DNA of 64,000 nt from Eledone cirrhosa (lineage: Eukaryota), in assembly GCA_964016885.1 (NCBI GenBank), contig OZ024756.1, forward strand, positions 14,012,001-14,076,000, given 5' to 3'. Within the stretch, counting starts at the first letter, position 1. Each line of letters starts with the position of its first letter. The notes beneath the pieces were generated by a model. It did not search any database, had not been told where the DNA came from, and saw only the letters and a list, made by a program, of their open reading frames with translations. The position numbers and the translations under genes are program-made. Of the stretch, positions 13,801 through 56,416 are shown piece after piece.

Positions 13801-14250
13801 ATTACACCTGTCCTACCTTCCACAGTTGTTATATACTGTCATCATTACAATGTCACAATAACCACATTACACCTGTCCTATCTTCCACAGTTGTTATATA
13901 CTGTCATCATTACAATGTCACAATAACCACATTACACCTGTCCTACCTTCCACAGTTGTTATATACTGTCATCATTACAATGTCACAATAACCACATTAC
14001 ACCTGTCCTATCTTCCACAGTTGTTATATACTGTCATCATTACAATGTCACAATAACCACATTACACCTGTCCTACCTTCCACAGTTGTTATATACTGTC
14101 ATCATTACAATGTCACAATAACCACATTACACCTGTCCTATCTTCCACAGTTGCTATATACTGTCATCATTACAATTACACCTGTCCTATCTTCCACGGT
14201 TGTTATATACTGTCATCATTACAATTACACCTGTCCTATCTTCCACAGTT
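10865..14250. repeat. 65-bp minisatellite (~52 copies; four 49-bp variants)
   Basis: unit cagttgttatatactgtcatcattacaatgtcacaataaccacattacacctgtcctatcttcca. Confidence 0.97.
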
Positions 14251-14369
14251 ACTGGATGCAATGAATCATGACAGTGGAATTCCACTAAAGTCCCTACAAG
14301 TAGATGGCGGTATGTCTGTCAATTCTTTACTTATGCAGTTACAGGCTGATCTCTTGGGAATCAGTGTTG
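14249..14369 (+). CDS. GK: glycerol kinase exon ([40 protein letters not shown])
   Basis: acceptor ccacag supplied by the last minisatellite unit; donor gtaagt; VDGG motif. Confidence 0.95.
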
Positions 14370-14499: not shown

Positions 14500-14535
14500 T
14501 CTTCTGATGAAGGATTAACATCCGAAATATTAAGA
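14500..14535 (+). ncRNA. minimal hammerhead-like motif (PLE type)
   Basis: TCTT-CTGATGA-A-GGAT taac ATCC-GAAA-TATT-AAGA; same element family as 4008-4043 (shared downstream flank). Confidence 0.6.
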
Positions 14536-14648
14536 CTCTTTTCTTACTACAACAAGCATTAAACTAATATATATCATCATTGTACTATTTCATTCTCTTA
14601 TGTTGTTTTTCTTCAATCACTATATATATATATATATATGTATATGTA

Positions 14649-17978: not shown

Positions 17979-17985
17979 GTATGTT

Positions 17986-18181
17986 TCTGCATTACGACAT
18001 TATGACGCTGTATGTTTGTGTGTGTGTGTATATATGTATATATAGCGTGTGTATATATATATAGTGTGTGTAACGTTTTTCGAAATATTTACTTCTGCGT
18101 TCACAAATTGATTTTTTTTAGTTTCAGAAGATCCCGTTAAGGGTGAAAGCAGCGATTCTTTGCATAAACTTTAAACTGTTA

Positions 18182-18241
<60 letters not shown>

Positions 18242-18387
18242 TATATTCGTGTACAGATATTTTTGCATACACAATAACAAAATATAAACAAACGTATTTA
18301 TTTCATGAGGATCGATAAGGATAAATATATATCAAATATATAAGAACCCTAGAGCAAATCCCGAGCAATGCCGGGCCATTCTGCTAG
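17986..18387 (+). mobile_element. Helitron-like element, second copy
   Basis: 3' hairpin cccgagcaatgccggg then ccattctgCTAG-T. Confidence 0.7.
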
Positions 18388-18638
18388 TATAATATAAAAG
18401 AGAGATCTTTATTGGTTGGTTGGTTGCACGAAAACTACAATCACACACACACAAACACACATACATATACACACATCTAAAGAGAGAGAGAGAGAGAGAG
18501 AGAGAGACCCAGAGTGAGAGGAAGAGAGAGAGAGAGAGACCCAGACCCAGAGTGAGAGGCAGAGAGAGAGAAAGATAGGCTGTTATACAGAGAGATTTAC
18601 AATTAAAGTGTTAGATATTCAGAGAAAGAGAGAGAGAG

Positions 18639-18691
<53 letters not shown>

Positions 18692-18939
18692 CGCCCACAA
18701 AAATCTTTGATTTTACAGAACAAAGAAAAAATTGATACTATTTGAAATTAATCTACTGTGTAGATTAAGTTAGTTTTTGTCTGCCAGTTGGTTGAAATGA
18801 AAGAGAAATTCACAAACAATATAAAAAAAGACTTGGGAATAAAGGTTCAAGTAAACATTGTGACATTCAGCAGAATATGAGATGGGAAACAGAAATGTTA
18901 AGACAACATGAAAGACGATCACAAAATATTGTCTATATG

Positions 18940-20090
18940 CTTCAGCTTCGGCTTGTTCCTGTGAGGGGTTGGGTCTTCTGTATTACTGCGTGACGCCAGA
19001 GGTCACGGTCGTGTGTCATTTCCCTTGAGAGGTGCAATTGGGTAAGGTCGGCCTTTATCACCTCATCCCAGGTCTTCTTTGGTTTCCCCACTCCGCGGCT
19101 TCCATCGACTTCTAGTACTCTGCCCCTTTATATGCAGCTGTCATCCTTCATACGCATCACATGTCCATACCAACGCAATCTCCTCACCTGCACACAGCAT
19201 TTGATTCCTTTTATGCTCAGTCTCTCTCTCAATTCGTTTATACTTTGCCGTTTGCGTTTATTACTATTACACATCCATCGGAGCATGCAAGGTTCGTTTC
19301 TTTCTAATCTGCGCAAGTTTTTGACAGACAGCGCCCAGGTTTCACTACCATGTAACAATGCTGTTCTGCCTTTCATTTTGAGAGAAAAGCTTTTGCAGCT
19401 AGCAGTGGCAGTAGCGCCCTGAACTTCTTCCATCCCGTTCTTACCCTAGTTCTTGTACTTTCCGAACACCCACCTCCGCTGCTAATTCGGTCACCTAGGT
19501 AGCAGAAGCTGTCTACTGTTTCTACAGAGTCCTCCCAGAGTTTGGTGGTACTTGTTTCCTGTGGCTGTTTGGTGCTTGCTGTCCCAGCACAGCTGCTACA
19601 TGTGAAGCCTACATTCTTAGTTAAGCTTCCTGAGATCCCACTACATCTCTTGTGTACCCATTGTTTGCATTTGGGGCAGAGGATGGAGTTCCTACCTACA
19701 CGTTTCCTACATACTGAGCAAGGCCATTTCCCTGAGGGGATCTGGGTTCTGTTTTCTCGTCTACTTAAAAGAACCTTAGTCTTTGTCAGGTTGACTTTGA
19801 GACCCTTTCTTTCTAGTCCCTGCTTCCATGTTTGGAATTTCTTCTCTAGTTCCACCATAGATTCAACTATAAGTGCGAGATCATCCACATATAGGAGTTC
19901 CCATGGGCATCCGGTCTTAAACTCCTCCGTTATTGCCTGCAAAACTATAATGAACAGGAAAGGCCTAAGAACTGAGCCCTGGTGGACACCGACCTGTATA
20001 CTAAATTCCTCGCTATAGTCATTGCTGACTGTTCCTCTATACATGGCTTGTACAGCTTTCACAAGCCATTCATCTACTCCTAATTTTCTA
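18940..20090 (-). mobile_element. RTE-clade LINE fragment (RT + C-terminal region), frameshifted
   Basis: GVHQGSVL..FLF, PWELLYVDDLAL, GLKVN..KTK, PHD-like Cxx[31 protein letters not shown]. Confidence 0.93.
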
Positions 20091-20408
20091 GAAATGTGTA
20101 TGTTTATATATATAGTGTGTGTATATATGTATGTTTATATATATAGTATGTGTATGTTTATATATATAGTGTGTGTATATGTGTATGCTTGTCAGTATGA
20201 ATGTCATATCAACACTGTTGAAGGCCTGTGGTGACAGTTGTTTATGTTCCCCATAATATAAAACAAATAAAAACAGAAATAAAAACAGAAAAAGGTGTGG
20301 ATTGACATCAGGCCAGAATATATAAAAAATAATATGTCAGAAACACTTATGAGGATGATGATGATTGTGTTTAATGTTGTACTTGTTGTTGCTGTGATGT
20401 TAATAGTA

Positions 20409-20446
<38 letters not shown>

Positions 20447-20857
20447 TTCAGCTTGATCAGTGTTGTTTGAACAGATTTTGTATTACAGGCAGTATTTTTG
20501 TCTGTGTTTTTTTTTCCATGCTTGTATAGGTTGGACATGTCTTTACCAGCATAGCATGTGTTGGATGTGTCTTTTCCATGCTTGTATGGGTTGGACATGT
20601 CTTTTCCAGCATAGCACCAATTGTCACATTCTGTTGCCATCCCCTTTGTTAGGCTCAGCCTACAGTGAGCAGTTTTAGTCACCATCCCATGTCTTCATCC
20701 TTGGTCTTCCTCTTCTGCAAGTTCTATCCTATTGGAACTCCTCTCACTTCTTTACCCAACAGGCATTATCCATTTTCATTACATATGCATACCAGCGCAG
20801 TCTTCTCCCATGCACACAACATCTAATAGCCAGTTGTACACCCAGTTTTTCTCTCTA

Positions 20858-20914
<57 letters not shown>

Positions 20915-21160
20915 AAGAATTCATATCTAGTAACATATATATACATACAGATGCATATCAATGCTAGCAAATATATAGGTTTTGTCTTAAATAACAGTGT
21001 GGTTCAATGCATGGGGTTGCAGAACAATAATATAAGAGACGTAAAATAAGAAAATTATAAAATTAACTTACTTACTAAAATATCACTTCCAACTAATTAG
21101 TTTCTGGAATAAATGGAGTAAATATATTTTCCGAAGAATAATATAGAGAATCATTCCGTC

Positions 21161-21195
<35 letters not shown>

Positions 21196-22220
21196 CATAT
21201 ATGTGTGTTTAAACAATAAAAGTGTTTCTGAGAAAGACTGCCGATTGAACTGGATCTTCAAGACTAGAAATGGGGAGTAACTTAACCACTATTGTTTCAA
21301 CTCTGATTCAATCAAAGTTGTTTCAAATTTGATTGACAGGTGGAGAATGAAAAGAACCAAATAGTGGACAACCATGAGTGGCTAGAAATATCGATGACGT
21401 GTACAATTCTTGACCACTCATGGAATGAGAACAACAACAGGATCTAAGCCAACAGGTGAAGGATAGTGATGTAAAAGGACATTAGGAAAATCTGCTTCGT
21501 AGAATCAAGACGTATCTGAGGACCTTGCGATTTTCAAAGTCAGGTTCGATCATCACATTGATCGTGCCTCAAGCTGGTCGCCAGAGAAACGATTGTAATA
21601 TGTCCAATAAACTCCATTCATCGCAACACTAATTCTCTTTTTTTCTGTGATATCATACTCTGCTCTGTGAGAGCATCGAGTGCTCAAACAGCCTACCGCA
21701 TACGGACGCTTTAAGCAACCAACACCAATTATATATATATATATATATATATATAATTGACTGGGGTACTAGTGAGGTTTCACACCCCTCCATCACCACC
21801 AACACGTCATCGATTTATTATCCAAGGGAGATAATTAAGATTCAGCTGTTATATTTCATTACTAAAGGCCTTTAGTAATGAAACTTGGCAGATTAAATAT
21901 ACGACTAACCGTTACTGGCATAACATCTAGCAAGGTTATCTCCCTTCTTCACTCTCCTCTCTACAAAAGGTCTCACACAGAACTCTTCAGGTTCACAATT
22001 ATCTTCTATTCTCCAGGTAACAAAGAGGATCACAAAGAGAGGTAACTTCTTCAGATTTTAGCTGTTTATGTTTGTGTGTGTCTGTGTATATATGTGTGTA
22101 TGTGTATATATCTATATATTTATATATATATAAGCAGGATATCCATAGATAATAGGGAAGGGAAACAATGCTCAATCTATTGCAAGAGAGCTTATTTAGT
22201 ATAACCAAAATTTCATACAC

Positions 22221-22336
22221 TTAACCTTCTGGGTGCTCTAGGCGCCTTATGTCGCCAGTAGAGAAATCTCCCCTTAATACATAATGCAGTGTCAGGGGAA
22301 GCAATTCATAAAAAGATTCAATGTGCTAAAGGTTAA
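22221..22336 (+). mobile_element. small (~115 bp) TTAA MITE
   Basis: TTAACCTT...AAGGTTAA; inverted copy 30651-30777; interrupted copy 8063-8465. Confidence 0.75.
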
Positions 22337-22524
22337 CATGTATGCACAACCTTAGGTTTCAAGGTCCTGTTATGGTCAACACTGTATGGTGGAGGAGCTC
22401 TAATCGAGTGCCAGGACAAAATTACCCTGGCACCCAATGAGAGGCCAGTTTTGAAATGACACCTCCACTATACAGTGGTGGCCATAACTGGACTTTAAAA
22501 CCTATGGTTAAGCATACATGTTAA
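22333..22524. mobile_element. diverged fold-back element with degenerate hammerhead
   Basis: ttaacatgtatgc...gtggagg is inverted to cctccac...gcatacatgttaa; related copy at ~48587-48698. Confidence 0.55.
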
Positions 22525-22544
22525 GTGTATGAAATTTAAAATAT

Positions 22545-22623
<79 letters not shown>

Positions 22624-22672
22624 ATATATATATGTGTATATATATATATATATGTATATATGTGTGTGTATA

Positions 22673-22723
<51 letters not shown>

Positions 22724-22780
22724 GTGTGTGTATATATATATGTGTATATATATATATATATGTATATATGTGTGTGTATA

Positions 22781-22835
<55 letters not shown>

Positions 22836-23279
22836 GTGTGTGTATATATATGTGTGTATATATATATATATGTATATATATGTGTATATGTATATATATG
22901 CATATATATATGTGTATATATGCATATATATATGTATATATATGCATATATATATGTATATATATGCATATATATATGTATATATATGCATATATATATG
23001 TATATATATGCATATATATATATGGTATATATATGCATATATATATATGGTATATATATGCATATATATATATGGTATATATATATGGTATATATATGCA
23101 TATATATATGTATATATATATATATATTGTTATGCTTTGGGAGGGTCATGTTGCTAATAAGAAACACACGCACCAGTTGCTTTCACTCCAATTTATTATA
23201 AATTAAATTTATAAATTTAAGAATTTATAAATTTCCGGTTGGTTGGATGGTTCCACAACCGGACGGTTGTTCATATATT

Positions 23280-23322
23280 GTCAAAGTTCTTTCGTCACAC
23301 ATTCTGTGACCTCTTCAGTGAC
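23280..23322 (-). ncRNA. type I hammerhead-like motif
   Basis: rc: GTCA-CTGAAGA-G-GTCAC agaatgt GTGAC-GAAA-GAACTT-TGAC. Confidence 0.6.
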
Positions 23323-23778
23323 TGGGGATTCTTTTCTTTGTTTTTGTACCTCTCCTTTGTTCTGTCCTACACCATCTTGTTTTTGTGCCTAGAGCACCCG
23401 ATGTAAAAACTGATGACAGGGTGATGATTGAGATCATTCTCGATACAAATAGGCTGGGTCCCTAGCGGATGAAATTAGTCTGGGTTTTTGTACTTACATA
23501 ATAAGTATTTGGCTGCGTAAGAACAACGATTATAGAAATCAGACCTTGAATTTAGACAGGTGGTGCAGGATATTTATTTCATTCTTCAATGCACAACCCG
23601 CAAGACAAATTCCCATTTCCGTATGACCTAGATTTAGTCAGAACTTTCATTGAATGGAGTAATCCGCGCCTGCCTCCTTCAGTGACCATATGTGGCTTGC
23701 GAGCTTTGTGGCTAATCATTTATCCGGGTGTCCAAACGCTCTCTGATGATTAAGGAAGTATATGTGTGTCTATATATC

Positions 23779-23810
<32 letters not shown>

Positions 23811-24091
23811 GGGAGAGAGATGGTTTTATGTATATACCCTCTGTTTATTATATAATCCTGTTATGCACACTTTAAAGACATCACAGTGATTGTATAATAA
23901 TCCTTTGATGTGTTGTCATCAGACAGGTATTAAGATGCAATATTATTTTGTTTTTTGACATGGGATGCATATGAAGGATGACAGCTGCATACAATCATTG
24001 TGTAGTGCTTATGTCTGAATACACTAGTCGTTCGATTAACTGATCAACCAACGTTTCTTTACTTGAATATATATCTATATATCTATATAAG

Positions 24092-24128
<37 letters not shown>

Positions 24129-24569
24129 CTATTTTGTATCTGTAGTGAGTGAATATCACTACTGAGATAGCTGTGACATGATCAAAGCTTTTTAACCTTT
24201 AGAACACTGAATTTTGTTAATGAATTCCTTCCCTTCATAGCACGACTCTTTTATGTATATTATACATTAACGTATCATATACACCCCTATGACGAACAAC
24301 TTTATGTTAGTGCCACTTTTATATATATATATATATATATAAAGTTTTATCTCAAATTAAATTCAGTTAAGACAGTTTCATATTTAATTGTTCTTTTGTT
24401 GATTAAATATATATATAAATATATACATACATATGGGTGCCAGTATATATGTGTGTGTGTATGTGTGTACGTATTCTTGGGTTCGGTTCTTTTGTTGTTC
24501 TGCATCCCTAAACAGTCACTATGGAAACAATCCTACTGACTTGTTGACTAATTCCACTTTCTGTTAGCT

Positions 24570-26050
24570 TTAACCCTTTAGCATTTAAACCGACCATATC
24601 CGGCCAGAATTCTCTCACTCTGTCTGTTCAAACTGGCTGTAACCAACCACTCATACTGATGTTAAGGTATTCTTCTAAAAAAGAATACCATCAAAATCTC
24701 ATAGATTTGATATTATGTGAGGTAAAGCCTTTACTGTGAAAATACAGTAGTAAATATTGAGTAATGTAAATGTTATGTGAGATATTATGTGAGGTAAAGC
24801 CTTTACTGTGAAAATACAGTAGTAAATATTGAGTAATGTAAATGTTATGTGAGATATTATGTGAGGTAAAGCGTTTACTGTGAAAATACAGTAGTAAATA
24901 TTGAGTAATGTAAATGCTATGTGAGATATTATGTGAGGTAAAGCCTTTACTGTGAAAATACAATAGTATATATAGAGTAATGTAAATGTTATGTGAGATA
25001 TTATGTGAGGTAAAGCCTTTACTGTGAAAATACAGTAGTAAATATAGAGTAATGTAAATGTTATGTGAGATATTATATGAGGTAAAGCCTTTACTGTGAA
25101 AATACAGTAGTAAATATTGAGTAATGTAAATGTTATGTGAGATATTATGTGAGGTAAAGCCTTTACTGTGAAAATACAGTAGTAAATATAGAGTAATGTA
25201 AATGTTATGTGAGATATTATATGAGGTAAAGCCTTTACTGTGAAAATACAGTAGTAAATATTGAGTAATGTAAATGCTATGTGAGATATTATGTGAGGTA
25301 AAGCCTTTACTGTGAAAATACAATAGTAAATATTGAGTAATGTAAATGTTATGTGAGATATTATGTGAGGTAAAGCCTTTACTGTGAAAATACAGTAGTA
25401 TATATTGAGTAATGTAAATGTTATGTGAGATATTATGTGAGGTAAAGCCTTTACTGTGAAAATACAATAGTATATATTGAGTAATGTAAATGTTATGTGA
25501 GATATTATGTGAGGTAAAGCCTTTACTGTGAAAATACAGTAGTATATATAGAGTAATGTAAATGTTATGTGAGGTATTATGTGAGGTAAAGCCTTTACTG
25601 TGAAAATACAATAGTATATATTGAGTAATGTAAATGTTGTGAGATATTATGTGAGGTAAAGCCTTTACTGTGAAAATACAGTAGTAAATATTGAGTAATG
25701 TAAATGTTATGTGAGATATTATGTGAGGTAAAGCCTTTACTGTGAAAATACAGTAGTAAATATTGAGTGAGGTAAAGCCTTTACTGTGAAAATACAATAG
25801 TAAATATTGAGTAATGTAAATGTTATGTGAGATATTATGTGAGGTAAAGCCTTTACTGTGAAAATACAATAGTAAATATTGAGTAATGTAAATGTTATGT
25901 GAGATATTATGTGAGGTAAAGCCTTTACTGTGAAAATACAATAGTAAATATTGAGTAATGTAAATGTTATGTGAGATATTATGTGAGGTAAAGCCTTTAC
26001 TGTGAAAATACAATGGTAAATATAGAGTAATGTAAATGCTAAAGGGTTAA
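24570..26050 (+). mobile_element. piggyBac-type (TTAA) MITE with internal 72-bp array (~18 units)
   Basis: TTAA-CCCTTTAGCATTTA...TAAATGCTAAAGGG-TTAA. Confidence 0.9.
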
Positions 26051-26499
26051 AACATCTCACCTCTCATCATTTGTTGACATTCACTAATTCTCTCCTTTTC
26101 ATCTCTCCTAATAACAAATCTACAATCTTCCTGATCCTTCATCTTCTGCTTCTTCCCCTTCTGCTACTTCTCCTTTCCCTTCTTCAAGCTTTCTTCTTTA
26201 GTCCGCTACCTCCACTATCAGTTCAGTTCTAACCAATTTATTATTTGCAGTGGAATGATAGGGACCCCAGTCATATCATCTCACTTCTACAGCTGAGTAA
26301 ACTGGAGCAATGTGAAATAAAGTGTCTTGTTCAAGGAAACAACACATCACCCGGTCTGAGTGATGTGTGTATATATATATATACATATGTATATATATAT
26401 ATATATTTATACATATGTATATATATGTATATATATATATCTATATATATATACATATGTATATATATGTATATACATATGTATATATATATATGTATG

Positions 26500-26584
<85 letters not shown>

Positions 26585-26707
26585 GTATATATATGTATAT
26601 GTATATATATATATGTATATGTATATATATGTATATGTATATATATATATTTATATATATGTATATTTATATATATGTATATGTATATATATATATTTAT
26701 ATATATG

Positions 26708-26743
<36 letters not shown>

Positions 26744-26751
26744 GATATATG

Positions 26752-26786
<35 letters not shown>

Positions 26787-27552
26787 GTATATATATATAT
26801 AAATATAAGAATCAAAGAACTGTTCAAAACATTATTGTGCTTACAGCTGTTTCCTCCAAACCGAGGGCCCAGCACTATGTGTCAGTGATTGTCACAAGTG
26901 TAGTGTTTGTACCAGAGTTTTCAAGTCGCTGGCTGGACTAAAAAGTCACACTCGTTCAGCGCATCGGTAGGGGTTCTCCTACATGGATATAAAGTAGTGG
27001 CCGTACTCGAAATCGAGTTGGCAGCCACCATGTATATATATATGTATATATATGTATGTATATATATATATATGTATGTCTATATATATGTATATATATG
27101 TATGTATATATATATGTATATGTATGTATATATATATGTATATATATGTATGTATATATGTATATATATGTATGTATATATATATGTATATATATGTATG
27201 TATATATATATGTATATATATGTATGTATATATATATGTATATGTATGTATATATATATGTATATATATGTATATATGTATATGTATGTATATATATATA
27301 TGTATGTATATATATGTATATATATATATGTATGTATATATATGTATATATATATATGTAACTTTGAATAACTTTGAAATGTTTTGGCCAGTATTGGCCC
27401 AGGCCATGTCTAACTTAATAGCACCACCTGGCGAAGTCTTTCAATTCAGGATTTGGGCACCATGGCCCATTCGAGAAGAGAATTACTGTTTGCGGAGACA
27501 TATCCGGGTGTGGGTGGTTTGTCCGGGATTACTTGGAGGAATTTGTCAATGT

Positions 27553-27593
<41 letters not shown>

Positions 27594-27619
27594 TATGTAT
27601 ATATATGTATATATGTATG

Positions 27620-27722
<103 letters not shown>

Positions 27723-27735
27723 GTATATATATATG

Positions 27736-27780
<45 letters not shown>

Positions 27781-27789
27781 GTATATATA

Positions 27790-28758
27790 TGCTTCCGTTA
27801 CCTGGGCGATAAAATCAGCAGTGGGGGAGGGTGCTCTGAAAGTACTGTAGCTAGAGTCAGAACTGGTTGGAAAAAGTTCAGAGAGCTTATACCACTATTA
27901 GCTGCTAAAGGGTTCTCACTAAAAATGAAAGGCAGGTTGTACGATGCCTGCATACGAACAGCAATGCTGCATGGCAGTGAGACCTGGGCATTGTGTGCAG
28001 AGGATATACGCAGACTAGAGAGGAACGAAGCTTGCATGCTCCGCTGGATGTGTAACAGTAATATACGTGAACGGCAAAGCATAAACGAACTAAGGAAAAA
28101 ATTAGAGATAAGAGGGATCAGATGTTGTTTACTCGAGAGAAGGCTACGTTGGTATGGACACGTGATGCGCATGAAAGTCGATAGCTGTATAACAAAGTGC
28201 AGGGCAATAAAGATAGACGGTAGTCACGGAATAGGCAGACCTAGAAAAACCTGGGACGAGCTGATAAACTCCGACATCACACACTTACACCTCTCCAAGA
28301 CAATGTCACTGGACCGAGACCTTTGGCGGTACTCAGTAACAGAGAAGACCCGCCTTACCTAAATATATAGTAAAACCTACTCCAGCCAGTAGGCATCTCT
28401 AACAAAATACACCCCGTCCCACCACCCCCACCCCACCCGATCCACACCACCCCGTTCTATGTAAAGTTATGTTGGTGCCGCGCCATCGAGGCCGAAACAA
28501 ATGAGATCGTGTAGGTGTCACGACAAAAAAACACACAGTCCACGCTGTAATGTGGCCGTGTAGGCAACACGGTAAAAACCTCCCAGACCCACACTGTAAA
28601 TGTGGTTGGTGTTAGGAAGGGCATCCAACTGTAGAAAACCTGCCAGACAGTCCTATGCGAGCAAGACAATCACTCTTGCCTCGAGTGGGACTACCCCCGT
28701 CCAAACCCATGCAAGCGTGGAACACGGACGTTAAACGTTGATGATGATGATGATGATG

Positions 28759-28759
<1 letters not shown>
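27790..28759 (+). mobile_element. 5'-truncated RTE LINE with 3' UTR and (GAT)n tail
   Basis: FRYLGDKIS...MLHGSETW...[11 protein letters not shown]...GRPRKTW to stop 28362; 3' UTR ends acgttgatgatgat. Confidence 0.93.
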
Positions 28760-28790
<31 letters not shown>

Positions 28791-28791
28791 G

Positions 28792-28822
<31 letters not shown>

Positions 28823-28855
28823 ATATATATATGTATGTATATATATATATGTATG

Positions 28856-28911
<56 letters not shown>

Positions 28912-28917
28912 TGTATG

Positions 28918-29006
<89 letters not shown>

Positions 29007-29145
29007 GTATGTATATATGTATGTATATATATAGATGTATGTATATATATAGATGTATGTATATACATATGTATATATATATATACATATACATACAGAT
29101 ATATACACATACATACATATATACATACATATAATATATACATAG

Positions 29146-29176
<31 letters not shown>

Positions 29177-29310
29177 CATATATATATACATATACATATA
29201 TACATAGATATATATATATACATAGATATATATATATGTATATATATATATATATGTATATATATACATACATATATATATATATCTATGTGTATATGTA
29301 TATATATATG

Positions 29311-29361
<51 letters not shown>

Positions 29362-29362
29362 G

Positions 29363-29399
<37 letters not shown>

Positions 29400-29426
29400 A
29401 TATATGTATATGTATATATGTATGTG

Positions 29427-29459
<33 letters not shown>

Positions 29460-29557
29460 CTATGTATATATGTATATGTATGTATGTATATATGTATGTA
29501 TATATATATGTATGTATATGTGTATGTATATATATATGTATGTATATATATATATGT

Positions 29558-29590
<33 letters not shown>

Positions 29591-29924
29591 TATATATATG
29601 TATATATATATATATGTATATGTATATATATATATATCTGTATATGTATATATATATATATCTGTATATGTATATATATATATGTCTGTATATGTATATA
29701 TATATATGTCTGTATATGTATATATATATATGTCTGTATATGTATATATATATGTATATATATATATGTATATATATATGTATATGTATATATATGTATA
29801 TATATGTATATATATGTATATATATGTATATATATATATGTATATATGTATATATATATGTATATTTGTATATGTATATGTATGTATATATATGTATATA
29901 TATATGTATATGTATATATATATG

Positions 29925-29986
<62 letters not shown>
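28760..29986. repeat. long (TA)n/(TG)n microsatellite (others at 22555-23127, 26365-26800, 27030-27360, 27550-27790)
   Basis: direct reading. Confidence 0.95.
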
Positions 29987-29988
<2 letters not shown>

Positions 29989-30168
29989 TAAAGATCCGAA
30001 GGCATGGTATAAATTTCCAATCAATTTAATCACGACACATGTTTCAATAAGAGATAGATCAATCGTGTAGCCATGATCGATTAATCGATCATGGCTACAC
30101 AATCTCTTATTGAAACATGTGTCGTGATTAAATTGATTGGAAATTTATACCATGCCTTCGGATCTTTA
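29989..30168. repeat. fold-back palindrome carrying only the 3' half of a hammerhead
   Basis: arms taaagatccgaagg.../...ccttcggatcttta centred on TTAA 30081-30084; GAAAC-ATGT-GTC in each arm. Confidence 0.85.
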
Positions 30169-30302
30169 TTTTGATGCAAATACTCCGTTTTACATCATCT
30201 AGCTGTTCCCATAAATGGAATTGGAGATATACAAAAGCGTGGAGTACTTAATATTGCTTACAAAAATTTATTGGATCGTTTGACACAACCAATAATACAC
30301 CT

Positions 30303-30346
<44 letters not shown>

Positions 30347-30405
30347 CAAGGCTCTGATACCATCAACACTATACACACAGAGCTGGCATATCTAAGAACT
30401 GACTA

Positions 30406-30461
30406 ACTGCCTGATGAGGTCATAGCCATTCAATGGCTATCATCGAAATATATATAGCAGT
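30406..30461 (+). ncRNA. type I hammerhead ribozyme (minimal, PLE-like)
   Basis: ACTGC-CTGATGA-GGT c ATAGCCATT c AATGGCTAT c ATC-GAAA-TATATA-TA|GCAGT; helix I ACTGC/GCAGT; predicted cleavage after 30456. Confidence 0.88.
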
Positions 30462-30951
30462 AAATAAAGGATTATGAGTTCATGCAATTGACTTATGTTT
30501 CGTCACTATATATATATATATATAATCATCTTTTAAAGCAGCCATTAAATGATGATGATGATATATATAAACAGTTGTGTCCTGCATGGATGTAAAGCAT
30601 GTAATGCATCTCTAACATGTATATATATGAATGCAAATAACAAACCATGTTTAACCTTTAGCACGCTAATAATTTTCATGAGTTGTTTGCCTTGCCACTG
30701 CATTATCTCTTTAAGGGGAGATTATTCTTACGGTGCCCTGTGTCGCCTTCAGGGCATTTAAGGTTAATATACATCTCCCAATTGTTTATGAGAGACATCC
30801 GGAAAGAGAGTTAAATATACATTATATTTTAAGATGGAGGGTTAAATATATATGTACCTCATTTTAAGACAGAGGGTTAACTCTACTTCAATTGTACGGT
30901 TTTAATTGTTAAACTTGCACGCTCTGGCTTAAGTATCGGGAATCATGCCTC

Positions 30952-30988
<37 letters not shown>

Positions 30989-31122
30989 TAGAAGGGGTAT
31001 TTAATTTGTTGGAAGTCCGACAAATATAAATGTTTATAACTGATTTAGAGCACTCAACTGGTTACTGGAGTAAATATTCAATGATATTAAATAAATGGAA
31101 ACTATATTTATAAAACCATATT

Positions 31123-31185
31123 TATTTTATTATATATATTTCAAGGGTACCAAAACACATTGGTACGCTTTCTTCAGATAAAATA
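31123..31185 (-). ncRNA. type I hammerhead ribozyme, left arm of palindrome
   Basis: rc: TATTTTAT-CTGAAGA-AAG c GTACCAA..TTGGTAC c CTT-GAAA-TATATA-TA|ATAAAATA. Confidence 0.85.
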
Positions 31186-31297
31186 CAAAGTTTGTTTTAT
31201 AAATAGAGACATATCGGTTGGATATTCTCTGGATAGAATATCCAACTGATAAGGTATGATTTTCATGGGTATGTCTCTATTTATAAAACAAACTTTG

Positions 31298-31360
31298 TAT
31301 TTTATCTGAGGAAAGCGTACCAATGTGTTTTGGTACCCTTGAAATATATATAATAAAATA
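31298..31360 (+). ncRNA. type I hammerhead ribozyme, right arm of palindrome
   Basis: TATTTTAT-CTGAGGA-AAG c GTACCAA..TTGGTAC c CTT-GAAA-TATATA-TA|ATAAAATA; predicted cleavage after 31352. Confidence 0.85.
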
Positions 31361-31425
31361 AATATGGTTCTATAAATATAGTTTCCATTTATTTAATATC
31401 ATTATATATATATATATATATATAT

Positions 31426-31962
31426 ATCATCATCATCATCGTTTAACGTCTATCTTTCACACTAGCATGGGTTTAGACGGGAATTGTCCCACTTGAGGCA
31501 AGATTGGTCATCTCGCTCGTAAAGGACTGTCTGGCGGGTTTTCTACAGCTGGATGCCCCTTCCTAACTCCAACCACGTTTACAGTGTGGACTGGGAGGTT
31601 TTTACCGTGTTACCTACATGGCCACATTACAGCGTGGACCGTATGTTTTTTTGTCGTGACACCTACACGACCTCATTTATTTAGGACTGGATGTTGTGGT
31701 ACCAACATAACTTTACAGAGAGAGGGGTGGTGTTGATGGTGGGGGTGGGAGTAGGGGTAGTGGGATGGGGGTGTATATTTGGTTAAGAGGTGCCTACTGA
31801 CTGTAGGTTTTGCTTTGTACATAGGCAAGGCGGGTTTTCTGTATTACTGCATAGCGCCAAAGATCTCGGTCCAGTGACATTGTCTTGGAGAGGTGTAAGT
31901 GTGTAAGGTCGGTATTTATCAAATCATCCCAGGTTTTTCTGGGTCTACCTACTCCGTAAACT
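31426..31962 (-). mobile_element. RTE LINE 3' end
   Basis: [35 protein letters not shown] plus the same 3' UTR and (GAT)n tail as 28362-28759. Confidence 0.9.
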
Positions 31963-31982
31963 CTATATATATATATACACAT

Positions 31983-32091
<109 letters not shown>

Positions 32092-32190
32092 CCCCCCATA
32101 CACACACACATATGTATATATACATACAGGTATGTGCAGCCATTCACACATATGCACCCCCACACACGCATATATATATATATATATATA

Positions 32191-32490
32191 CTAGTGTAGT
32201 ACCTGTCAAAAATGATAGGTTATATAATAAAATATATTTAATTTAATAATTCCTTGAATACAACATTCTGTGAAAAGATACTTTAATCCTCAATTCATTT
32301 ACAATAATTTTCTTCCATATTTTCTTTAATCTGCCATATATGCCCTAAATTCCTATCACTTTGTTTTACCTACTTATTTACCTTACCTATTTATTACTAT
32401 CTCTCTGTTTTCTGACTGCTAATAGAATTTGTGCTTTGTTTGTTATGCTGTTATTATATTATCCAAAGATATATACAACGGTACATATCT
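32191..32490 (-). mobile_element. Helitron-like 3' end
   Basis: rc hairpin acctatcatttttgacaggt followed by actacaCTAG-T; 5' boundary uncertain. Confidence 0.55.
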
Positions 32491-32496
32491 ATAGCT

Positions 32497-32682
32497 ATGG
32501 ATTGGCAGTATCGGTAGAGGGTTGGGCGCCATGCTTTCCAGCATAGTTACGTCCCTTTACGATCTGAGTTCAAATCCCGCCGAGGTTAACTTTGCCTTTC
32601 ATCCTTACGGGGTCGATAAAATAAAGTACCAGTAACGCACTGGGTAATTGCTGGCCATGTGCCTAAAGTAGAAACAATTATA
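32497..32682 (+). mobile_element. SINE family B copy
   Basis: same sequence; further copies 49586-49725(-), 52740-53160(+, interrupted), 53160-53345(+), 59320-59516(-). Confidence 0.88.
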
Positions 32683-33077
32683 TAGTAAGCGAGATAAGAT
32701 ACTTTTACCTGTTGCATGACCCCATGTACACCTGAAATAAAACCAGCATGGCACCCAATAATGTATACATTCGCAGAATTAAAAACAAGCTAAAAATTTG
32801 TGCAGTACAGACAAGCTGACGAGAACATCTTTTTACTAGAAATAGCAGTCAATTTAAACACGTCTATCAACTTGACATTTAAGGAGCAGCAATTCATTGC
32901 TTAGAACATAATTCTGAGAAGCTTCGTCATCATCATCACTGTTTAACGTCCATTTTTCCATGCTAGTATGGGTTAGACAGGTTGTCTTATGAGAAATGCC
33001 AGGTCAGGTGATCATAACTTGCTCATATAGAATTGCTTTTGGCTTGGTTGCTACAGCCCTTTCTAGTGCCAACCTCA

Positions 33078-34395
33078 TTTACAGTGTGGGCTGGGTGCTT
33101 TTTGTCATGACACCTACATAACTACTTTACAGTGTGTACTAGGTGCTTTTTGTCATGACACCTACATAACTACTTTACAGTGTGTACTGGGTGCTTTTTG
33201 TCATGACACCTACATAACTACTTTACAGTGTGTACTGGGTGCTTTTTGTCATGACACCTACATAATTACTTTACAGTGTGTACTGGGTGCTTTTTGTCAT
33301 GACACCTACATAACTACTTTACAGTGTGTACTGGGTGCTTTTTGTCATGACACCTACATAACTACTTTACAGTGTGTACTGGGTACTTTTTGTCATGACA
33401 CCTACATAACTACTTTACAGTGTGTACTGGGTGCTTTTTGTCATGACACCTACATAATTACTTTACAGTGTGGGCTGGGTGCTTTTTGTCATGACACCTA
33501 CATAACTACTTTACAGTGTGGCCTGGGTGCTTTTTGTCATGACACCTACATAAGTACTTTATAGTGTGTACTGGGTACTTTTTGTCATGACACCTACATA
33601 ACTACTTTACAGTGTGTACTGGGTGCTTTTTGTCATGACACCTACATAACTACTTTATAGTGTGTACTGGGTGCTTTTTGTCATGACTCCTACATAATTA
33701 CTTTACAGTGTGGGCTGGGTGCTTTTTGTCATGACACCTACATAATTACTTTACAGTGTGGCCTGGGTGCTTTTTGTCATGACACCTACATAAGTACTTT
33801 ATAGTGTGTACTGGGTGCTTTTTGTCATGACACCTACATAACTACTTTACAGTGTGTACTGGGTGCTTTTTGTCATGACACCTACATAACTACTTTACAG
33901 TGTGGCCTGGGTGCTTTTTGTCATGACACCTACATAACTACTTTACAGTGTGTACTGGGTGCTTTTTGTCATGACACCTACATAACTACTTTACAGTGTG
34001 GGCTGGGTGCTTTTTGTCATGACACCTACATAACTACTTTACAGTGTGTACTGGGTGCTTTTTGTCATGACACCTACATAACTACTTTACAGTGTGGGCT
34101 GGGTGCTTTTTGTCATGACACCTACATAACTACTTTACAGTGTGTACTGGGTGCTTTTTGTCATGACACCTACATAACTACTTTACAGTGTGTACTGGGT
34201 GCTTTTTGTCATGACACCTACATAACTACTTTACAGTGTGTACTGGGTACTTTTTGTCATGACACCTACATAACTACTTTACAGTGTGTACTGGGTGCTT
34301 TTTGTCATGACACCTACATAACTACTTTACAGTGTGTACTGGGTGCTTTTTGTGATGACACCTACATAACTACTTTACAGTGTGTACTGGGTGCA
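33078..34395. repeat. 48-bp minisatellite (~27 copies)
   Basis: tttacagtgtgtactgggtgctttttgtcatgacacctacataactac; same origin as 625-975. Confidence 0.95.
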
Positions 34396-34409
34396 ATGAC
34401 ATGTATGCC

Positions 34410-35340
34410 ACCCTCTTTCTATGAGCGGTCAGGCTGCTGAAAAGAAGAGGCCTCGGGCGTATCCAGGGTACCATGGATGAACCTGATGAGTGTCACAGTT
34501 GCACTATATGGGGGATAGCAACACATTGAGGTGGCCATGTCGGAGACCACCTTTGTTAGTGGGGTGGAGAATGCTGTCCTCCACCCCATCTTTTCTGGTG
34601 GGGTGGAGGATGCTGTCCGCCATGGTGACCACTTTAACATCACCCTCGATTAGGTTGGCGTTTATACAATCATGTAAACACTTTGTGCCTGAGGATAGAG
34701 GGCACCTCAGAGCAGAGGGTGTGGCGTCCTTGGGCACACTTGGGATGGGTGCTTGCCCAAAGGACAAAACATTGGCCTTGACAAAAGCTGCTGTCAACAG
34801 TCTGCCTCGGTCAGTGCCAGTGTTGGGGAGGCCAAGGGCATGTGGGGCGAAATGGAAGAGGTGCTCCCAATCACTGGCTTGATTAGTGTCCAGAGCCCTC
34901 TCAATTGAGGATGCAAGGGCATTGGCTATTGGCACCCAGGCAGCTTTCGGGATCTTGAGCGGAATCTTCTGGAACCGCCTGAGCCAAGTGATGTCGACCA
35001 GTAAGGCTTGAGCATCAGACAAGCTCGCTGTCTCATCTAATGGTGTAGAGGACAGCTGCGGTTGTGTAGACGAGGGGAAGAGACAGTTGGTGCATCTCCA
35101 CGCTGCGACGGCACTGGAGGCTCAACGCATCAAGCCAGCAAGCCTGTTTGTGGTAGTGCATGTACTGCAGGTGTCACCTGGTGGGGTAGAGCATGCAGCT
35201 GGGGACTGGAGCAGTATGCAGCAACATGGGTGTGTGGCTGGTTGTCTTCGGCCAGGGCGCTTAACTCAACAGTGGGTGGGTTGAGGGTAGAAACTGGAAT
35301 CACGAGGAAGTAGGCAGGGTGACGATATGAAGGAGGCATC
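34410..35340 (-). mobile_element. probable CRE-clade (RLE) non-LTR retrotransposon fragment, pre-RT region
   Basis: KIPKAAWVPIANAL...NQASDWEHLFHFAPHALGLP...LIEGDVK resembles, from recall, the region preceding the RT in metazoan CRE elements; GC-rich island. Confidence 0.55.
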
Positions 35341-35724
35341 ATATCTCACCTAAACCAGATCTGAAGGCAACAGAGGACACCCCCCAACCTCCACCCCACC
35401 CCGCAAAGGGGGGGGGGGGGGGGTTGGAGGCATGGAAGGGGACCTAAAAAAAAAACGGGTGTTCAAGTGGAAAATCTTAGAGATCTATATGTAAGGTTGC
35501 TCTTGAGTGCTAATGGCAGCATGTAACCCAGTACACCTTGTCACATGGTCGAGTCATCAGCAACTAAACCGGCAACCCTACCAAGCTTGCTTGGCGAGGA
35601 GGGTGACACCCTGCAGGACGATAAACAAAACCTGACAATGGGCAGAACATCTATATGTATATATGTATCTACACATACATATATATATATACATGCACTC
35701 ACCAACACACACCCATTGTTTTGT

Positions 35725-35757
<33 letters not shown>

Positions 35758-35793
35758 GCTTGTTTATAATCAATTTTTCTTTATTTCTTGTAG

Positions 35794-52640: not shown

Positions 52641-53660
52641 GTAAGTTGCTATATCTCGCTTCAGTGACCCCCACCATGGGCCAGATAGAGGTTCTGCCTG
52701 TTCTAGATGTTCAGAGTTAGAGCATCAGACAACATGAATTGTGGCATATAGTTACGGCCCTTTACGTTCTGAGTTCAAACCCCACCGAGGTTAGCTTTGC
52801 CTTTCATCCTTATGGGATCAATAAAATAAAGTACCAGTAATGTACTGTGCGTGACAGCTCACACCTATGCAGGTTTAGCTGGCCTCCTCCAAGGTATATC
52901 TCGTTGGAGGAGTCTTGGGTGATTTAATGATAGGGACCCCAGTCCCTATCATCTCATTCCTACAGCTGAATAAACTGGAGCAACGTGAAATAAAGTGTCT
53001 TGCTCAAGGAAACAACACATCACCTGGTCTGAGAATTGAACTCACAACTTTTCGATTGCAAGCCCAATGCTCTAACCACTAAGCCATGCACCTTCACTAG
53101 TAATGTACTGGGGTTGATTTAATCAACTTTCCCCTCTTCAAATTGCTGGCCTTGTGCCTGGTTTGGCAGAATCCGTAGAGCGTCAAGATACCATGCTTTG
53201 CAGCATAGAGTTGTGGTCCTTTACGTTCTGAGTTCAAATCCCACCAAGGTTAACTTTGCCTTTCATCCTTACTGGGTCGATAAAATAAAGTACCAGTAAT
53301 TTACTGGGGTAATTGCTGGCCTTGTGCCAAAAGTAGAAACAATTATTATTCCCCAGTGAATTGGAAGGAAGTGGTAAGTTTTAATCAGATCTGTATTTTA
53401 GGGGCTATTATAAGTAAGAAATATATTTACTAACCTCTAGGGCAGAGGTTCCTAATCTAGCATAAGGTTTACTTACTTGGGGAGTAAATTTGTTGATCAT
53501 TAAGTTACATCGTTACTGGTTTCAGTCATCTGACTGTGGCCATGCTGGGGCACTGCCTTCATAGGATTTAGTCAATCATATCAACCTTAGTACTCCTTTT
53601 TTTTTTTTTTTCAAGCTCCTAATTTACAAGACAGAACCAGTAATTATTGACAGAGACAGA

Positions 53661-53868: not shown

Positions 53869-53939
53869 TATTTTATTATGCGCATTTCAAAAACAAATAT
53901 CATCATGAGATGATATCTGCGTTTTCATCAGATAAAATA
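53869..53939 (-). ncRNA. type I hammerhead ribozyme, left arm of palindrome
   Basis: exact reverse complement of 54058-54128. Confidence 0.88.
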
Positions 53940-54057
53940 GGGATACATGATATAAAGGTTAAAAAATACTTGTGAATAGTGAAGTTTTAAATCAACATAT
54001 GCTGATTTTAAACTTCACTATTCACAAGTGTTTTTTAACCTTCATATCATGTATCCC

Positions 54058-54128
54058 TATTTTATCTGATGAAAACGCAGATATCATCTCATGATGATAT
54101 TTGTTTTTGAAATGCGCATAATAAAATA
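54058..54128 (+). ncRNA. type I hammerhead ribozyme, right arm of palindrome
   Basis: TATTTTAT-CTGATGA-AAA c GCAGATATCATC tcat GATGATATTTGT t TTT-GAAA-TGCGCA-TA|ATAAAATA; palindromic helix III ATGCGCAT; predicted cleavage after 54120. Confidence 0.9.
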
Positions 54129-55709: not shown

Positions 55710-56105
55710 GGAGGCACATGGCTTAGTGGTTAGAGCATTGGGCTTGCAATCGAAAGGTTCGGAGTTCAATTCTCGAACCGGGTGATGTGTTGTTTCCTTG
55801 AGCAAGACACTTTATTTCACATTGCTCCAGTTTACTCAGCTGTAGAAATGAGATGATAGGGACTGGGGTCCCTATCATTCCACTGCAAAGTGGTCGTGGA
55901 GGCGCCACGGCAAAAAAGCACCCAGCACTCACTGTAAATGAGGTTGGTGTTAGGAAGGGCATCCAGCTGTAGAAATCAAGCCAGAATCAGTTCCTGTATG
56001 AGCAAGACAAGGTCAGCCGACCGGACACTGCCCACAACAGGACAACCCGTCTAACCCATGCTAGCGTGGAAGAACAGACATAAAACGGTGATGATGATGA
56101 TGATG
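55710..56105 (+). mobile_element. SINE family A copy (long tail variant)
   Basis: full head, core and tail ending (GAT)n. Confidence 0.88.
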
Positions 56106-56323: not shown

Positions 56324-56416
56324 CACATATCTGAGGAGCTTTTGATTCCAGTGTCAGGAACGAACATAATCGATCATTCCTCGAGCCGATCGGCAGTGAA
56401 ACATATGTAATGTGTG
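56324..56416 (+). ncRNA. type I hammerhead ribozyme with large loop II
   Basis: CACATAT-CTGAGGA-GCT...AGT-GAAAC-ATAT-GTA|ATGTGTG; inverted partial copy of the 3' half at ~56284-56305. Confidence 0.65.

Follow-up and report, generated by a model that had tools for sequence, protein, structure and literature searches.

A hammerhead-bearing 165-bp unit in a probable glycerol kinase gene (last intron) of Eledone cirrhosa, read as the 3' end of a Hydra-like Penelope-like element

We analysed a 64-kb stretch of the Eledone cirrhosa genome (assembly GCA_964016885.1, contig OZ024756.1, positions 14,012,001 to 14,076,000, forward strand; hereafter the window), in which a hammerhead-bearing unit at 30343-30507 lies within the 17.8-kb last intron (17979-35793, + strand, GT..AG) of an FGGY-family kinase gene. 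The spliced frame across this intron is open to the stop codon, and the exon at 14249-14365 (+) matches Pfam FGGY_C (E 2.8e-8). Motifs that we take to be glycerol-kinase-like are found on the + strand, starting about 32 kb upstream of the window. Because the evidence consists of the FGGY_C exon match and these motifs, the host gene is only likely to be a glycerol kinase. The preliminary description had placed the hammerhead sense to this gene and in its last intron, and both points were confirmed. The AATAAA at 30463-30468 (+), which belongs to the family sequence, was considered as an intronic poly(A) signal and is given no special weight, because the sense strand of the intron holds 16 such hexamers, nine of them ahead of the unit. 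Other features of the gene and window include a weak minimal hammerhead-like motif in sense orientation in an upstream intron (14500-14536; relaxed scan without shuffle control), a U6 snRNA gene, or a copy of one, that lies antisense within the kinase gene (8311-8416, -), and two tRNA-like SINE heads (53025-53092, -, and 55719-55776, +).

The unit is bordered by a 37-nt upstream (TA)n run (30306-30342, +), the target site, and an 18-nt downstream run (30507-30524, +), with which it shares a 3' junction found family-wide. A descriptor scan and folding identified a type I hammerhead motif at 30406-30461 (+), consisting of the helix I 5' arm ACTGC (30406-30410), the core CTGATGA (30411-30417, C3 at 30411), helix II (30418-30444; three base pairs including G10.1-C11.1, one mismatch, eight base pairs and a 3-nt loop), GAA (30445-30447), the 8-nt palindrome ATATATAT as helix III (30448-30455), a predicted cleavage site after A30456, and the helix I 3' arm GCAGT (30457-30461). 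Six motifs of this kind were found by the descriptor scan in the window, against zero in every one of 100 dinucleotide shuffles made block by block; an Rfam scan at gathering threshold did not report a hammerhead at 30406-30461, and the folding z-score of the 165-bp unit was unremarkable (-1.1). An intact hammerhead within a unit of about 165 bp, with TA runs on either side, had been described earlier and was recovered here. The absence of a masking inverted partner also held, since neither an inverted partner nor a second copy of the unit is present in the 64-kb window; the 150 kb upstream likewise holds no second family copy, and these two regions contain the other exons of the gene. Upstream of the unit, at 29986-30305, a 186-bp near-perfect inverted repeat precedes a repeated segment whose end is the upstream (TA)n run, so that several TA-targeted insertions are nested at this site.

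Searched against its own genome (3.0 Gb), the unit gave 731 candidates, and all 40 that were scored, which represent the top of the ranking and no random sample, were 100% identical over 165 bp; six of the first 30 loci run on upstream into common sequence. A 21-nt hammerhead core had 3,020 exact genome matches (1,507 + 1,513), with 0 for the reversed control. The first 30 core matches were taken from the largest contig, two of the rows being the two arms of a single inverted insertion. Of these 30, 26 share one 3' end; measured from it, the 30 matches extend for 151 nt to 1,300 nt or more, so the 5' ends are variable. Copies of the unit lie mostly in (TA)n. Two of 30 sampled copies (L135 and L150) have their 3' end inside the TA run of helix III, close to where cleavage is predicted. 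Two position-ordered samples gave 39 copies, 16 short and 23 long, with three haplotypes common to both groups and 2.75 (short) versus 3.04 (long) substitutions per 165 nt (p=0.83). At this divergence, about 6% of family copies are expected to be unmutated (Poisson estimate), so the perfect identity of the window copy is no proof of a very recent insertion. Across 12 hammerhead core sites in 38 copies we counted five substitutions, or 0.011 per site against a background of 0.015, and since the core mutates at about the background rate in this small sample, there is no sign of selection on it. An empty-site joint was not seen in assembled contigs, which break at TA runs. Contigs from two runs labelled as two other organisms (X23 and X24) carry 148 and 92 nt of window positions 30351-30498 with one or two differences, and may reflect related species, mixed samples or transfer.

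Walking upstream from long copies led to an element of about 4.0 kb, of which the window unit is the 3'-terminal 165 bp in a 5'-truncated copy, aligning to parent positions 3882-4050 with 99.4% identity. Eight of 10 long loci end in the unit, and four carry a whole second unit about 4.0 kb upstream, where it ends a 5' pLTR of about 280-850 bp; this second (5') unit is partial in one locus and absent in two. At locus L095, 4,048 bp separate the two units. The hammerhead sits within the pLTR, as the same unit ends both terminal repeats of long copies elsewhere in the genome, which bears out the earlier suggestion of a solo pLTR. The same description had called the unit stand-alone, which is correct locally but fails genome-wide, where the unit is the fixed 3' end of the element.

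By its motifs, the parent encodes RT together with a C-terminal GIY-YIG-type endonuclease in a single ORF. This ORF is intact in none of the 10 long loci, with longest stop-free frames of 269-541 aa of roughly 880, and its motifs were read in broken copies: RRMRWRAY, HADKT, LDINNYY, GLYRDDAL, CNCRDPSLC (CxCX5C) and CNLC..E..N..CRH. Over residues 1-751, the parent is collinear with P0001, a homologue of full length. Searching longer proteins recovered 51 homologues (672-806 aa), the best named one being from Argonauta hians (45% identity over RT); DKT, DKS or DKG was found in 50 of the 51, CxCX5C in 39 and the C-terminal pattern in 44. The N-terminal motif reads RWR in the copies and RWK in the Argonauta homologue P0003. 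Because Pfam returned no match for the parent ORF pieces and four homologues, the domain names rest on these motifs. Traits of Penelope-like elements (PLEs) are present as partial tandems forming pLTRs, 5' truncation and head-to-head inverted pairs, and Hydra-clade traits as the DKG to DKT change, the CxCX5C linker, CxxC and CxH around E and N, the C-terminal endonuclease and the (TA)n preference. The Hydra size, generally below 3 kb and typical rather than diagnostic, differs from the 4,048 bp of L095. We thus regard the parent as a PLE with Hydra-clade features, its putative membership of that clade resting on motifs, given the empty Pfam scan and a length beyond the typical. The family would be one more Hydra-type PLE, present in high copy number.

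Eighteen RNA or guessed-RNA rows contained 4-6% of words; assembled contigs of two of these rows (X7 and X9) gave no alignment to the parent, which does not imply absence. In runs X19 and X22, contig depth on the parent grows towards the 3' end, an observation that we set aside because such depth is no copy number. Two further elements were observed beside family copies. A PLE-like element near one copy (L061:1351-2296 and about 1-1435, on C3) has an RT plus C-terminal GIY-YIG-type ORF with an asparagine-rich insert, and a second Hydra-like ORF (L094, oriented 7996-9606; 37% to P0001) lies directly downstream of a full-length copy.

Taken together, we consider it probable, at roughly 85%, that the unit represents the final 165 bp of a Hydra-motif PLE of about 4.0 kb, likely left by reverse transcription at (TA)n that stopped early, with a hammerhead predicted to be largely inactive in the intron. 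In this scenario, the endonuclease would nick a (TA)n target, and the nicked end would prime on a tandem or circular RNA, at the UAU(U)AUA coming after the unit. Target-primed reverse transcription would then halt early, yielding a 5'-truncated copy, and the cDNA would be joined at its 5' end through ATAT microhomology at -169 to -165; this ATAT, present in the parent as well as in the (TA)n target, lies at 30339-30342 (+), and the parent alignment reaches 30339. Two identical hammerheads in the parent transcript could fold as a double hammerhead, whereas the lone copy, being without a partner hammerhead, would be a passenger in the pre-mRNA. Both solo pLTRs and microhomology joining are mentioned in the accessible part of PMC3846280, while hammerheads go unmentioned in that of PMC13282606. 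Recombination between pLTRs may alternatively have produced the window copy.

The distribution of 5' ends is a point against early-stopped reverse transcription. Exact matches to the 5' end of the unit number 2,082, of which 717 run into the parent and 694 are fused to (TA)n, the remaining 671 being unclassified. Fusions to (TA)n at other TA-like sites are far fewer, with seven at the same ATAT 45 nt further 3', two at about -355 and at most 44 starts in the 9-nt TA run of helix III, so that the accumulation of ends at 165 nt calls for more than microhomology. Likewise, 11 of 30 sampled copies measure 166-170 nt and none 101-150 nt. Starts in helix III were examined as a sign of cleavage and set aside, given their low number and the finding that six of 12 inspected retain upstream unit sequence, as expansions or deletions within longer copies. 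Among upstream segments, the one at -173..-161 pairs best with the 3' tail (-12.5 kcal/mol; 3.4% of shuffles, judged post hoc), and it coincides with the hotspot. The cause may be this long-range helix, but equally a start site or a cDNA of minimal length.

These observations also speak for a different origin, in which no chance truncation but a short RNA of defined extent, or a minimal cassette, with its own start site or structural boundary, would account for the 165-bp form, mobilised in trans by the enzymes of the parent as a non-autonomous mini-PLE. We regard this origin as unlikely, since the short copies carry all three long-copy haplotypes at the same divergence, and the mean probability of the long-range helix is just 0.28 across the 21 of 30 copies that were folded. 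One candidate short-only variant, seen in three of 16 short copies, proved to be present genome-wide in seven short and 10 long copies. The related notion that the roughly 100-fold pile-up at -165 marks a built-in boundary, by which the PLE sheds a fixed-size ribozyme cassette as its commonest product, is equally unlikely; such a boundary may be a start site or the long-range helix closing the hammerhead domain. If true, a dispersed mini-PLE would be a step before the retrozyme, and the pile-up would offer a countable readout of how PLE reverse transcription ends. We found no description of such a 5'-end hotspot in the searched literature, which was mostly open-access and whose supplements may bear on it. 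The sharp preference for a single length is the sole point of wider use here: with bearing on the PLE transposition cycle and the role of the hammerhead in it, thousands of young junctions could test how cDNA synthesis begins and ends.

All folding energies and probabilities given here are equilibrium predictions. For the monomer, the active fold (-10.9 kcal/mol) lies above a core-burying misfold (-14.7 kcal/mol), and in 1.1 kb of context helix III is predicted to pair with the flanking (UA)n (p about 0.39); helix III of this type I motif is predicted to be stable only as a dimer. Slight cutting of the host pre-mRNA by a homodimer formed in trans, with a second nascent transcript of the host gene or another RNA bearing a family copy, could alter inclusion of the last exon. 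The core is intact, the predicted homodimer of 30406-30461 forms every pair of helices I and III at -34.4 kcal/mol, and thousands of family copies are potential partners. Nevertheless, we consider such cutting very unlikely, given that the misfolded dimer is lower still (-37.2 kcal/mol), that helix III competes with (UA)n in context, that even engineered dimers had low activity in the accessible part of PMC4209133, and that the core substitution rate is near background.

The preliminary description further proposed a heterodimeric hammerhead on the same pre-mRNA with a sense ribozyme at 31298-31360. The basis of that proposal was sound, as helix III is self-complementary and identical in both motifs (ATATATAT), which lie 0.9 kb apart in the same orientation. 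Each core of a double hammerhead receives the strand to be cleaved from its partner, and hence also helix I's 3' arm. Identical helix III sequences are therefore insufficient, because helix I must be swapped too, and here the swapped arms pair at only 2/5 and 3/5 positions, each with a mismatch at or beside the core. The heterodimer is extremely unlikely on these predictions, with -14.4 kcal/mol against -34.4 and -28.2 kcal/mol for the two homodimers, and with the partner paired to its own upstream antisense arm, transcribed before it, at p=0.999; helix III cross-pairing is predicted at about 1e-45. The hammerhead at 30406-30461 is thus predicted neither to cut itself alone nor to pair with the neighbouring ribozyme.

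That ribozyme and its antisense copy form an inverted repeat at 31071-31412 and belong to a different, dispersed hammerhead family with helix I arms TATTTTAT/ATAAAATA, a variable helix II and a palindromic helix III. This second family was seen as inverted pairs at 31071-31412 and 53877-54120, and it also occurs upstream of the window (L198 and L203); its copies are probably termini of other TA-targeting PLEs. An additional hammerhead-like motif at 56324-56416 has a 60-nt helix II region and the palindrome ACATATGT.

A retrozyme-like monomer had also been suggested for the unit, which our results do not support. Retrozymes are defined as tandems (PMC7229834; bioRxiv 10.64898/2026.07.22.740005, each as far as the accessible text goes), and no direct (head-to-tail) tandem was found in 120 loci from four partly overlapping sets, nor do the short copies form a lineage of their own. 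One suspected direct tandem on C1 proved to be a head-to-head pair. Like the unit, non-LTR retrozymes, in the sources available to us, are short, carry a type I hammerhead and are related to a PLE terminal repeat; unlike them, this family showed no tandems and many of its copies are contiguous with a PLE body. According to the accessible part of the bioRxiv preprint, one terminal repeat remains in most (truncated) PLE insertions, and solo PLE termini are proposed as possible seeds of retrozymes.

The closest match for the hammerhead is the minimal PLE hammerhead of Cervera and de la Pena 2014 (PMC4209133), described in its accessible part as mostly single dispersed motifs of truncated PLEs that need a dimer, a single such motif of S. 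mansoni having shown no detectable cleavage. Shared with these are the type I topology, a long helix II, a helix I of 5 bp, a palindromic helix III, a predicted need for a dimer and mostly single dispersed copies. The unit differs in that it has an 8-nt palindrome instead of none, longer than in the minimal motif tested there, that its predicted fold is without the unpaired base after position 9, and that its copies are highly uniform, at about 1.7% divergence. The locus itself is of little importance, being one among thousands of passenger fragments.

For the parent, the nearest system is the Hydra PLEs, defined in the accessible part of Craig et al. 2021 (PMC8557442) by DKT, the CxCX5C linker, CxxC..E..N..CxH, a C-terminal endonuclease and (TA)n targeting, the last given for nearly all families in the supplement. 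The parent shares all of these, as well as 5' truncation, partial tandems, copies arranged head to head and, close to its 3' end, a type I hammerhead. Hydra PLEs are generally below 3 kb there, and Hydra-1_Obim of Octopus bimaculoides measures 2,507 bp; in contrast, the parent is about 4.0 kb long, with a stretch of about 1.1 kb between the ORF and the unit, and has pLTRs, none being noted for Hydra-1_Obim in the same part. It also reads RWR instead of the Hydra RWK, and its hammerhead sequence differs from all in supplementary file S2, including that of Hydra-1_Obim. The proposed regulatory pairing is unsupported, and the element, of a known kind, is a new family member.
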